A DNA stretch of 14,028 nt from a virus (IMGVR_UViG_2563366825_000022:1-14028); one strand, 5' to 3'; numbered from the stretch's first letter, positions 4,537 through 14,028 are shown. The notes: generated by a model from the letters alone, not told the origin. Numbers and translations: made by a program.

Positions 4537-4589
4537 GGGCGGCAGAGCAGTCACGGAGTAAAACTGATACCGCCAAACGTCACCAGAAA
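4537..4589 (-). ncRNA. dicF: DicF small regulatory RNA (Hfq-dependent sRNA targeting ftsZ and other mRNAs), with an intrinsic terminator tail
   Basis: Minus-strand sequence UUUCUGGUGACGUUUGGCGGUAUCAGUUUUACUCCGUGACUGCUCUGCCGCCC followed by UUUUU matches the DicF sequence from memory. It ends in a GC-rich hairpin plus U-run and lies between the ydfC-like ORF and dicB. Confidence 0.8.
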
Positions 4590-9597: not shown

Positions 9598-9834
9598 TTT
9601 TATGGATCACCTTTCTGATTGATTTCATATTGGCGAGGTGACGTGAGTTAAGTAGAATTGCTGCGGGTGCTTGAGGCTATCTGCCTCAGGCATGAACACC
9701 AAAAGGCAGATAGAGAAAAGCCCCAGTTAACATTACGCGTCCTGCAAGACGCTTAACATTAATCTGAGGCTCAATCCATGCTGAACACATGTAGGTTAGC
9801 CTCTTACGTGCCGAAAGGCAAGGAGAAGCAGGCT

Positions 9835-9990
9835 ATGAAGCAGCAAAAGGCGATGTTAATCGCCCTGATCGTCATCTGTTTAACCGTCATAGTGACGGCA
9901 CTGGTAACGAGGAAAGACCTCTGCGAGGTACGAATCCGAACCGGCCAGACGGAGGTCGCTGTCTTCACAGCTTACGAACCTGAGGAGTAA
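9835..9990 (+). CDS. hokD: Hok/Gef-family type I toxin (HokD/RelF-like), 51 aa
   Basis: AAGGAGAAG precedes ATG 9835. Product MKQQKAMLIALIVICLTVIVTALVTRKDLCEVRIRTGQTEVAVFTAYEPEE has the Hok transmembrane helix and conserved C-terminal region. The ORF track's in-frame extension from ATG 9778 may be a mok-like leader frame. Confidence 0.85.
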   Translation: MKQQKAMLIALIVICLTVIVTALVTRKDLCEVRIRTGQTEVAVFTAYEPEE

Positions 9991-11496: not shown

Positions 11497-11877
11497 ATGA
11501 CCGAACGCATAGAATTTGTTTTGCCTTACCCGCCGACGGTGAACACTTACTGGCGACGCCGTGGCAGCACATATTTTATCTCGGAGGAGGGAAAGCGTTA
11601 TCGCCGGGCTGTGGCGCTTATTGTTCGCCAGCAGCGGCTGAAATTAAGCCTGTCCGGAAGGCTGGTAATCAGGATTATTGCAGAGCCACCGGATAAGCGT
11701 CGTCGTGACCTGGACAATATTCTGAAAGCACCGCTGGATGCGCTGACGCACGCGGGGTTGTTAATGGACGATGAGCAGTTTGATGAAATCAATATTGTAC
11801 GTGGCCAGCCAGTATCTGGTGGACGTCTGGGGGTGAAGATTTACCCCATAATGCTTGAAGGGCAGGTCAAAAAATGA
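11497..11877 (+). CDS. rusA: Holliday-junction resolvase RusA, 126 aa
   Basis: Motifs LPYPPTVNTYWRRRG, EGKRYR and PDKRRRDLDNILKAPLDALTHAG match the RusA family. Start abuts the upstream stop; the stop overlaps the Q-like start (ATGA). Confidence 0.85.
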   Translation: MTERIEFVLPYPPTVNTYWRRRGSTYFISEEGKRYRRAVALIVRQQRLKLSLSGRLVIRIIAEPPDKRRRDLDNILKAPLDALTHAGLLMDDEQFDEINIVRGQPVSGGRLGVKIYPIMLEGQVKK

Positions 11878-12695
11878 AACTGGAAGATTTACCGAAATAC
11901 TACTCCCCAAAATCCCCCGGCCTGACTGATGCATCGGCCTCAACGTCGAAAGATGCGCTGAGTATCACTGATGTGATGGCCGCGCAGGGCATGACACAGA
12001 ATCGGGCTGAGATGGGGTTTTCTGCGTTCCTTGGGAAAATGGGCATTAGTATGAATGACAGAGAGCGGGCAACAGAATTGCTGACAGAATATGCACTCAG
12101 TCGGTGTGATCGCGTGGCGGCGTTAAGAAAACTCCCGGCAGAAATAAAACCGGCAGTGATGCGTATTATGGCTTCGTATGCGTTTGAAGATTATGCCCGT
12201 AGCGCGGCGAGCAAAAAACAGTGCCCCTGCTGTCACGGAAAAAAATTTATTGAAAGCGAGGTTTTTACAAACAAGATCCAGTATCCGGATGGTAAGCCGC
12301 CAGTGTGGGCAAAGTGCACAAAAGGCGTGTATCCGTCTTACTGGGAGGAATGGAAAAAAGTCAGGGAGGTGGTAAAAGTTGCCTGTCCGGAGTGTGGAGG
12401 GAAGGGAGAGGTATCCACTGCCTGTAAAGATTGTCGTGGGCGCGGTGTTGCCATTCATCGTGAAGAGTCGGAAAAACAGGGTGTGCCGGTTTTCAGAAAC
12501 TGTCAGCGTTGTGGTGGGCGTGGCTATGAAAGATTACCTTCAACGGAGGCATTTAATGCCATATGTAATGTAACCGATGCCATATCTCTTGATACATGGA
12601 AAAAAACAGTTAAACGTTTTTACGATACGCTGGTGGTGCAGTTTGATATTGAAGAAGCATGGGCAGAACAACAACTGAAAAAGGTGACCAGATAG
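11874..12695 (+). CDS. Late-gene antiterminator Q-like protein (QuuQ-type) with four DnaJ-like CxxCxGxG zinc-finger repeats, 273 aa
   Basis: Positioned immediately upstream of a promoter plus intrinsic terminator. Repeats CPCCHGKKF, CPECGGKGE, CKDCRGRGV and CQRCGGRGY. N-terminus MKLEDLPKYYSPKSP resembles what I recall of QuuQ. Confidence 0.6.
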   Translation: MKLEDLPKYYSPKSPGLTDASASTSKDALSITDVMAAQGMTQNRAEMGFSAFLGKMGISMNDRERATELLTEYALSRCDRVAALRKLPAEIKPAVMRIMASYAFEDYARSAASKKQCPCCHGKKFIESEVFTNKIQYPDGKPPVWAKCTKGVYPSYWEEWKKVREVVKVACPECGGKGEVSTACKDCRGRGVAIHREESEKQGVPVFRNCQRCGGRGYERLPSTEAFNAICNVTDAISLDTWKKTVKRFYDTLVVQFDIEEAWAEQQLKKVTR

Positions 12696-12700
12696 CTTTG

Positions 12701-12728
12701 TTGATTTTTCCCGAATCTGTGGTAAATT
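12701..12728 (+). promoter_or_regulatory. Putative late promoter (pR'-like) with extended -10
   Basis: TTGATT, a 16-nt spacer, then TGgTAAATT, 6 nt after the Q-like stop and about 50 nt upstream of an intrinsic terminator. Confidence 0.4.
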
Positions 12729-12776
12729 TGCCCTAACGATGGGCGTTTTATGCCTGACGTTAGAAGATTTTTTACA

Positions 12777-12800
12777 CCCCGCCGCCTGGCGGGTTTTTTA
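12777..12800 (+). terminator. Intrinsic terminator (tR'-like) downstream of the putative late promoter
   Basis: Hairpin CCCGCC-GCCT-GGCGGG followed by TTTTTTA. Confidence 0.65.
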
Positions 12801-12921
12801 TGACTGAAATCGCGTCAGTACAGTAAACGCGCTGGTGGCGGTGAATACCTGTCTTTCAGCTTGCTGGCTTTTTCGACAAGAGTTATTGGTGTGTCACGTT
12901 AACCGGAAAAGGGAAAAAGAC

Positions 12922-13119
12922 ATGCTGAAACAGCAGGATATGACCGAAACCGCCAGAGTGGTGTTTAATGAATTAAGTGCCACCGAACCGGCGACAGTCG
13001 GGGAGATTGCGCAGAATACTTACCTTTCACGTGAACGCTGCCAGTTAATACTGACCCAGCTTGTTATGGCGGGGCTGGCAGACTATCAGTTCGGTTGTTA
13101 CAGACGCCTTCAGTCCTGA
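12922..13119 (+). CDS. Small hypothetical protein, possibly winged-helix DNA-binding, 65 aa
   Basis: Internal ATG of ORF 12835..13119, whose GTG start has no SD. Segment TVGEIAQNTYLSRERCQLILTQLVMAGL looks like an HTH/wHTH. Weak SD; the stop lies inside a terminator hairpin. Confidence 0.4.
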   Translation: MLKQQDMTETARVVFNELSATEPATVGEIAQNTYLSRERCQLILTQLVMAGLADYQFGCYRRLQS

Positions 13120-13131
13120 AGGCTTTTTTAT
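13105..13131 (+). terminator. Intrinsic terminator overlapping the stop of the small ORF
   Basis: Hairpin GCCTTCAG-TC-CTGAAGGC followed by TTTTTTATTTG. Confidence 0.55.
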
Positions 13132-13269
13132 TTGTGGTAAATGGGCGACTGGTGGGTGTTAGGGGCACTCACCAGCCATCTGCTCATGCGTCCGGATCAC
13201 AAGCAAACCTCAGGCCCACTGCTTTGCGCAAAAGCAGAATGAGCCTATCAGAGACAGGCTTAATGATCC

Positions 13270-14028
13270 ATGCTTAGTACTGTAAAAATATCCAGTTGTG
13301 AGTTAATCAACGCCGACTGCCTGGAATTTATCCGGTCGTTACCCGAAAATTCTGTTGACCTGATAGTCACGGACCCGCCGTACTTTAAAGTGAAGCCTGA
13401 GGGCTGGGATAACCAGTGGAAGGGCGACGATGATTACCTGAAGTGGCTGGACCAGTGTCTTGCGCAGTTCTGGCGGGTGCTGAAACCTGCCGGAAGTCTT
13501 TACCTGTTCTGTGGCCATCGCCTGGCGTCTGACATTGAAATCATGATGCGTGAACGCTTCAATGTGCTGAACCATATTATCTGGGCGAAGCCGTCCGGAC
13601 GCTGGAACGGGTGCAACAAGGAAAGCCTGAGGGCATATTTCCCCGCCACAGAGCGCATTCTGTTCGCGGAACATTATCAGGGGCCGTATCGCCCGAAAGA
13701 TGCCGGGTATGAGGCGAAGGGCAGGGCACTGAAACAGCATGTGATGGCCCCGCTGATTTCTTACTTTCGTGATGCGCGTGCTGCCCTGGGGATAACGGCA
13801 AAACAGATTGCTGATGCCACAGGAAAGAAAAACATGGTGTCGCACTGGTTCAGTGCCAGCCAGTGGCAGCTACCGGACGAAAGCGATTATCTGAAATTAC
13901 AGGCGCTGTTTGCCCGGGTGGCAGAAGATAAGCATCAGCGCGGAGAACTGGAAAAGCCACATCACCAACTGGTCAGCACATACAGTGAACTGAACCGGCA
14001 GTATACGGAACTGCAGAGTGAATATAAG
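13270..14028 (+). CDS. DNA amino-methyltransferase (beta-class N6-adenine or N4-cytosine, DPPY motif), 3'-truncated by the window end
   Basis: Hand-translated open frame from ATG 13270 to the window end (253 codons, no stop). It is absent from the ORF track because it has no stop. N-terminus …CLEFIRSLPENSVDLIVTDPPYF… then VLKPAGSLYLF. An in-frame TGA lies just upstream of the ATG. Confidence 0.8.
   Translation, partial: MLSTVKISSCELINADCLEFIRSLPENSVDLIVTDPPYFKVKPEGWDNQWKGDDDYLKWLDQCLAQFWRVLKPAGSLYLFCGHRLASDIEIMMRERFNVLNHIIWAKPSGRWNGCNKESLRAYFPATERILFAEHYQGPYRPKDAGYEAKGRALKQHVMAPLISYFRDARAALGITAKQIADATGKKNMVSHWFSASQWQLPDESDYLKLQALFARVAEDKHQRGELEKPHHQLVSTYSELNRQYTELQSEYK

Follow-up and report, generated by a model that had tools for sequence, protein, structure and literature searches.

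What is a DNA methylase gene, preceded by a small ORF, doing at the classical cargo site of a lambdoid prophage, and does it open a larger restriction-modification or defence cassette? The stretch of DNA analysed here (14,028 nt, hereafter the window; coordinates refer to its plus strand unless marked otherwise) is a lambdoid prophage of E. coli that carries integrase, exonuclease, dicB/DicF, cI/cro, replication genes, hok/sok, RusA and Q. Since the window ends within the methylase, the full-length enzyme and the genes downstream of it were read from E. coli SCU-104, which shows one difference from the window (position 13148) in the 1,429 bases compared. The Q-type late antiterminator of the window (273 aa, 11874..12695, taken from the ORF listing) has as its SCU-104 counterpart WP_000762902.1, annotated 'antitermination protein', the match covering the last 96 bases of the ORF (12600-12695) inside that same comparison.

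Two RNAs that are ordinary for such prophages matched Rfam models at the gathering score, namely the sok antitoxin RNA (9665-9840, 120 bits) and DicF RNA (4537-4588, minus strand, 77 bits). In the SCU-104 locus aligned to the window (L001 7104-8151, 8639-8929) a homologue of a replication gene is frameshifted and a DUF1627 gene is truncated, so this prophage may be defective.

Late promoter and terminators

The small ORF and the methylase lie behind a Q-dependent pR'/tR' unit, as the preliminary description of this locus had recognised. A pR'-like late promoter (12701..12740) was read from the sequence and from an alignment with lambda pR', and comprises a -35 element TTGATT (12701), a 16-nt spacer, a -10 element TAAATT (12723) and an AACGAT pause-like element (12735). 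The stretch from GGTAAATTTG to AACGATGGG aligns with the -10, the initial transcribed region and the pause element of lambda pR'; a simple sigma-70 scan did not call this promoter. It is followed by a tR'-like intrinsic terminator (12778..12799; CCCGCCGCCTGGCGGG + TTTTTTAT), found by terminator scan with six GC pairs, and the T-run of this GC-rich hairpin aligns with the T-run of lambda tR'.

The same scan returned a second terminator-like hairpin with a T-run (13106..13130), in which 7 bp at 13106-13123 are followed by TTTTTTATTT. This hairpin overlaps the stop codon of the small ORF, which ends in a terminator-like hairpin of its own, as previously described. Homologous hairpins with compensatory changes are present in Buttiauxella, Salmonella, Klebsiella and Kluyvera loci. 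However, the U-tract is interrupted (UUUCUGCU) in most homologues, and the hairpin may therefore be a weak terminator. A sigma-70 scan found a promoter for neither the small ORF nor the methylase. The sequence TGTGRAAAT at the 5′ edge of the leader described below resembles an extended -10, and was rejected as a promoter because its register is inconsistent among homologues.

The methylase and its relationship to M.EcoGII

The methylase begins at ATG 13270, and its reading frame passes the end of the window, which holds the N-terminal 253 of 352 codons (13270..14028). It is assigned to the beta class of N6-adenine DNA methyltransferases from PF01555 and an alignment with M.EcoGII, which bears out the earlier assignment as a beta-class DPPY enzyme. 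The match to PF01555 (N6_N4_Mtase) has an E value of 9.5e-44 and scores 150 bits against a cut-off of 26.7. The motif order DPPY, central recognition domain, FxGxG is that of the beta class; DPPY (residues 35-38) and the central region are within the window, and the FxGxG motif, FFMGSGS, lies beyond it at residue 309 of the full-length SCU-104 copy.

Over the full length, 328 of 349 residues (~94%) are identical to M.EcoGII, of which a few mismatches may be artefacts as the reference was machine-read (PMC11551740, Supplementary Table S1). The target-recognition region contains some of the 21 differences. The preliminary description had missed this identity to an already characterised enzyme. 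M.EcoGIX was rejected as a match, being plasmid-borne. Phage 1720a-02, whose enzyme has been reported as very similar to M.EcoGII within a prophage-borne 'very large family' (PMC5778455), is 95.6% identical to the window at the nucleotide level over small ORF, leader and methylase. The identity to M.EcoGII, together with this published family, makes the window enzyme one of a known kind, and supports its description as a close M.EcoGII relative that is an orphan enzyme in a Q-dependent late region.

M.EcoGII methylates adenine in essentially any sequence context (PMC5778455), and the reconstructed ancestors of its clade are still largely non-sequence-specific. By extrapolation from an enzyme 94% identical in sequence, non-specific adenine methylation would also be expected of the window enzyme. 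M.EcoGII is silent in the lysogen and harmful under constitutive expression (Murray et al. 2018, PMC5778455). A 2023 survey (PMC10462455) recorded that some Stx2a phages encode, downstream of Q, a putative methylase of 352 aa; the gene was left unlinked to M.EcoGII there, and the small ORF and leader were undescribed.

A small winged-helix protein and its upstream motif

The small ORF encodes a stand-alone winged-helix protein of 65 aa belonging to PHROG 331 (12922..13119), as judged from its translation, profile matches and an AlphaFold2 model. It had earlier been placed from 12835, which is merely the GTG of the longest open frame. That 94-aa ORF was rejected since the conserved start is ATG 12922 (MLKQQDMT...), used by 55 of 58 distinct variants; the 65-aa protein itself is real. 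Non-synonymous divergence (pN) is 0.07-0.18 where synonymous divergence (pS) is 0.63-0.94, which by this sequence comparison marks the ORF as a real gene under purifying selection. Homologues form 341 clusters from Escherichia, Salmonella, Klebsiella, Citrobacter and Buttiauxella.

The match to PHROG 331 is strong (E 2e-37), its annotations being 'hypothetical' or 'TrmB family'. Pfam matches to TrmB, MarR and HTH_24 were all sub-threshold, with TrmB at 19.1 bits against a gathering threshold of 25.6 and MarR_2 at 15.9 against 27, and the Pfam search gave no HTH_3 match. The AlphaFold2 model (pLDDT 91.6) has the order H1, strand, H2, H3 and beta-hairpin wing, and on this confident model the protein is predicted to be a minimal winged helix, in line with its earlier reading as a wHTH protein. 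TM-scores against the OhrR and SarZ cores are 0.8-0.86, and the dimerisation helices of MarR proteins are absent. The fold matches are generic, taking in the cores of MarR, OhrR, SarZ and IclR and the winged helices of small-molecule O-methyltransferases, as well as the SelB RNA-binding domain and Z-alpha-like viral proteins.

Conservation along the protein is uneven. The N-terminus MLKQQDMT and helix 3, RCQLILTQL, are near-invariant, and the remainder varies as cassette-like alleles. Mosaic alleles (P0119, P0279, P0280) combine an E. coli-type N-terminal half with an alternative C-terminal wing (AKDNGGYGNKFRRCQ), a pattern in sequence that suggests recombination inside the invariant RCQLILTQL segment. 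Stx2c phages carry the small ORF as a divergent allele.

Upstream of the small ORF, an alignment of upstream regions from more than 55 loci revealed a motif, CTTGCTG-N~11-(C)AGAGTTAYNKGTRTGT (12860..12896), conserved from E. coli to Xenorhabdus and Photorhabdus and located ~30-60 nt 5′ of the ATG. Its consensus is CTTGCTG-N~11-CAGAGTTAYNTGTRTGT, from which the window copy differs by one A-for-C. There is at most one copy per locus, and the window holds a single match against 0.07 expected by chance. The motif was matched in most loci with the small ORF and in none of the species-representative loci lacking it. No conserved dyad was found in the motif alignment. On its sequence the motif may be an operator, a promoter or part of a 5′UTR, and as a promoter it could drive the small gene in the lysogen. 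Since its -10-like hexamer ends in G, however, the motif is not canonical as a sigma-70 promoter.

The 65-aa protein is a putative sequence-specific nucleic-acid binder. Our best guess at its target is the 12860-12896 motif, given the near-invariant recognition helix and the co-inheritance of motif and small ORF; that it binds there and tunes transcription of the block, by autoregulation or by timing, is a tentative proposal that we hold somewhat short of probable.

A conserved structured leader 5′ of the methylase

Between the second hairpin and the methylase lies a conserved structured leader of 135-140 nt (13131..13269), delimited with nhmmer, covariation and a covariance model. Its elements are a closing stem UGGGC/GCCCA, a P1 hairpin, a P2 hairpin, a P3 hairpin GCUUU/AAAGC and an A/U-rich start region for the methylase without a Shine-Dalgarno sequence. 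Coding potential in the 150-nt spacer was rejected on account of in-frame stops and 1-nt indels between homologues, and a search of the spacer for tRNA or tmRNA found none.

The leader is placed at a fixed distance in 51 of the 78 usable species-representative loci searched with nhmmer. Its length is likewise fixed: 113 viral contigs have the methylase ATG 130-132 nt downstream of the pattern AATGGGCGGCTGGTGGGTGTT. Identity to the window averages 0.73, much as at first codon positions, while third positions of methylase codons average 0.45. The minimum free energy has a z-score of -4.0 relative to shuffled sequences. Across 53 sequences, 87.8% of alignment cells are paired, against 27-43% when the partners are slid by 1-3 columns. 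Changes on both sides were seen in 16 of 34 pairs, where shuffles gave 6.7 and none of 500 reached the observed value, a covariation drawn from modest diversity of perhaps six to eight independent lineages. P1 shows double changes in 9 of its 12 pairs, one P2 pair alternates between C-G (28), A-U (11) and U-A (8), and the G-U pairs favour the sense strand.

A covariance model built on the leader has a single match in the window (13131-13242, 92.7 bits), and detects weak, reduced versions in Xenorhabdus and Photorhabdus in which the GTGAAATG-plus-P1 core is kept. A Trabulsiella prophage has, ~900 nt upstream of its main leader, a further, weak one (L014 2023-2141, 20.7 bits, E 0.011). Rfam searches with the window and with a consensus-like copy, at E values up to 10, gave no relevant match for the leader. 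An anti-sRNA of the EHEC prophage kind was rejected as its identity, since anti-sRNAs sit 3′ of the moron gene. The leader contains two GATC (Dam) sites, at 13195 and 13265, and the GATC within the UGAUC that immediately precedes the methylase AUG is shared by nearly all homologues. That the P2 loop pairs at long range with the GATC before the start codon had some support, and was set aside as the covariation is inconsistent. Most likely, the leader sets the translation or stability of the methylase message.

Downstream genes, distribution and linkage

In SCU-104 the methylase is followed by tRNA-Ile, tRNA-Arg, a TolA-like ORF, a NanS-p esterase, DUF1378 and DUF826, and further downstream by holin, lysozyme, Rz and terminase. 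No restriction or defence gene was found after the methylase in SCU-104. Of the two outcomes that the preliminary description had named as counting against its reading, an ordinary lysis cassette does follow, but the 65-aa ORF is conserved. PADLOC matched the methylase to its Type II MTase model and the 65-aa protein weakly and below threshold, and returned nothing for the next two genes downstream of the methylase. Two Stx phages, Stx2_95 (Stx2a) and one of the Stx2c type, carry the small ORF, the leader and the methylase between Q/pR' and stx2AB (L002 8144-11174; L212 2254-5296), the block being succeeded by tRNAs and then the toxin genes. In Salmonella and Klebsiella prophages it is succeeded by holins. 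The gene order is unchanged behind three different Q families in prophages of Salmonella, Klebsiella and Buttiauxella.

The module is present in 2,411 of 5,426 complete E. coli genomes, a single genome having as many as 8 copies. Among phage records it has 40 matches, for the most part Stx2-converting phages. Among the 78 usable species-representative loci, which were fetched through the methylase, 56 have the small ORF ~340 nt upstream of the methylase start; Xenorhabdus, Photorhabdus and Providencia loci are included, with small-ORF products of 39-54% identity. A further 19, with leader and methylase intact, lack the small ORF. Conversely, when contigs were fetched via the small ORF, 60 of the 75 informative ones have the methylase and ~20% of viral contigs do not; 12 of the 15 viral contigs with the small ORF and without an intact methylase have lost the leader too. 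Where enough flank was available on both sides, 108 of 118 occurrences of the leader pattern are accompanied by both small ORF and methylase. The leader thus goes with the methylase and the motif with the small ORF. As leader-methylase and small ORF are each found alone, the block consists of two separable, usually adjacent units, and the winged-helix protein therefore cannot be an obligate cofactor.

Two deletion derivatives were also observed (L250 2246-2455, L241 1299-1412), one having the leader and just the last ~70 codons of the methylase and the other the leader and no methylase. Both fit with the published record of ~50-aa remnants of the methylase in 933W-like Stx2a phages (PMC10462455).

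Alternative readings

A different arrangement would resemble com-mom of phage Mu, with the 65-aa protein binding the leader RNA and switching on translation of the toxic methylase late in infection. The two loci run parallel in having a small protein gene, a structured RNA and a toxic DNA-modifying enzyme without a Shine-Dalgarno sequence, and a review pairs M.EcoGII with Mom as toxic modifiers silent in the lysogen. Moreover, winged helices can bind RNA hairpins, the SelB domain being among the fold matches, and the genes stay in this order from E. coli through to Providencia. However, the leader is fully conserved in the 19 loci that lack the small ORF, while Xenorhabdus and Photorhabdus, which keep the small ORF, have no more than a reduced leader. 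RNAalifold predicted no conserved helix over the methylase start codon, and the folds differ, Com being a zinc finger and the 65-aa protein a winged helix. On this evidence we regard a Com-like role as improbable.

Weaker still is a writer-reader pair, in which the winged helix would read or shield m6A-rich DNA, for instance guarding hyper-methylated phage DNA from methyl-dependent nucleases. A passage in PMC11037411 describes winged helices of prokaryotic DpnI-type enzymes that sense 6mA, and the lasting linkage of the small ORF with an m6A writer would fit. This is nevertheless very unlikely, as the top fold matches include no specific match to such domains, and the near-invariant helix 3 and the co-inherited DNA motif point to a sequence-specific target.

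Orphan methylases can act as epigenetic regulators, and the block could be read as a regulator with a site-specific orphan methylase that controls host or prophage genes in the lysogen, for which the motif upstream of the small ORF might serve as a lysogen-active promoter. Against this, the methylase stands behind two terminators and the scan found no sigma-70-like promoter. M.EcoGII and M.EcoGI, moreover, are non-specific and give no methylation signal in the lysogen, and constitutive expression of M.EcoGII is harmful (PMC5778455). Little room is left for epigenetic control, to which we attach a very low probability.

That the block starts a restriction-modification or defence cassette continuing past the window, as had been suggested, is barely credible: the generic PADLOC Type II MTase match is all that speaks for it, and it is refuted by downstream gene content, namely tRNAs, TolA-like ORF, esterase and lysis cassette in E. 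coli, stx2AB in Stx phages, holins in Salmonella and Klebsiella, and a next pair of genes without a defence match.

Proposed function and significance

The region is very probably the first accessory block of a lambdoid prophage late operon, with an M.EcoGII-type orphan methylase. Anti-restriction is the most plausible role of that enzyme; here the earlier suggestion of an orphan methylase acting against restriction is supported. In the lysogen, transcripts from pR' would halt at tR', and any leak-through would halt at the second hairpin, so that the toxic methylase is proposed to stay off. Upon induction, Q would render RNA polymerase terminator-resistant, and the modified polymerase would cross the gene for the 65-aa protein, the leader and the methylase, then the tRNAs, in Stx phages also stx, and the lysis genes. 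The methylase could then hyper-methylate replicating phage DNA as a broad anti-restriction measure, and progeny would reach the next host protected from adenine-sensitive restriction systems. Under this scheme, the terminators, the leader and the start without a Shine-Dalgarno sequence would jointly hold a dangerous enzyme off in the lysogen.

A further step is to see here an undescribed form of control for the M.EcoGII family, in which the leader, as a three-way junction plus hairpin, gates the hyper-methylase, and the winged helix and its operator-like motif time expression. We offer this as speculation that is more likely to fail than to hold. If true, leader and winged helix would constitute a safety circuit like that of com-mom, assembled from unrelated parts.

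The module is common and of an already known kind, a prophage orphan methylase at the classical cargo site. New here are the conserved leader RNA, the upstream motif and the 65-aa winged-helix neighbour, and the novelty is modest. The enzyme family is of importance already, M.EcoGII being sold as a commercial reagent for chromatin footprinting. Placing the methylase as the first Q-dependent late cargo offers a concrete explanation for its silence in lysogens, by way of two terminators, a conserved folded leader and a conserved small, putatively DNA-binding partner. Some Stx2a, Stx2c, Stx2d and Stx2e phages, moreover, have the block between pR' and stx2AB. Toxin transcripts must consequently cross its terminator and leader, which may affect toxin output.

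Comparison with known systems

The block takes the position of the moron or cargo site downstream of pR' in lambdoid and Stx phages, where stx, tRNAs and nanS-p are found. With M.EcoGII and M.EcoGI, from prophages of E. coli O104:H4 C227-11, its methylase shares the order DPPY...TRD...FxGxG, a length of ~350 aa, a prophage location and orphan status; it is 352 aa long against the 349 aa of M.EcoGII, with ~21 substitutions, some of them perhaps reading errors.

A controller (C-protein), which the preliminary description had raised for the 65-aa product, resembles it in being a small putative DNA binder encoded upstream in a methylase block, with a motif before its own gene. However, the C-proteins of Type II restriction-modification systems are Xre-type HTH dimers that act on palindromic C-boxes and time a nuclease gene, whereas the present system has a winged helix, no clear dyad and no nuclease. 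With a different fold and no nuclease to control, the 65-aa protein is not a C-protein.

With com-mom of Mu the block has in common a small gene and structured RNA before a toxic modifier, which here too would be silent in the lysogen, made late and active in anti-restriction. The chemistry is different, as Mom makes carbamoylmethyl-adenine and an M.EcoGII-type enzyme m6A. So is the architecture: com overlaps mom, whereas here a terminator-like hairpin and a ~135-nt leader separate the small gene from the methylase, and, unlike in Mu, leader and small gene occur independently of each other.
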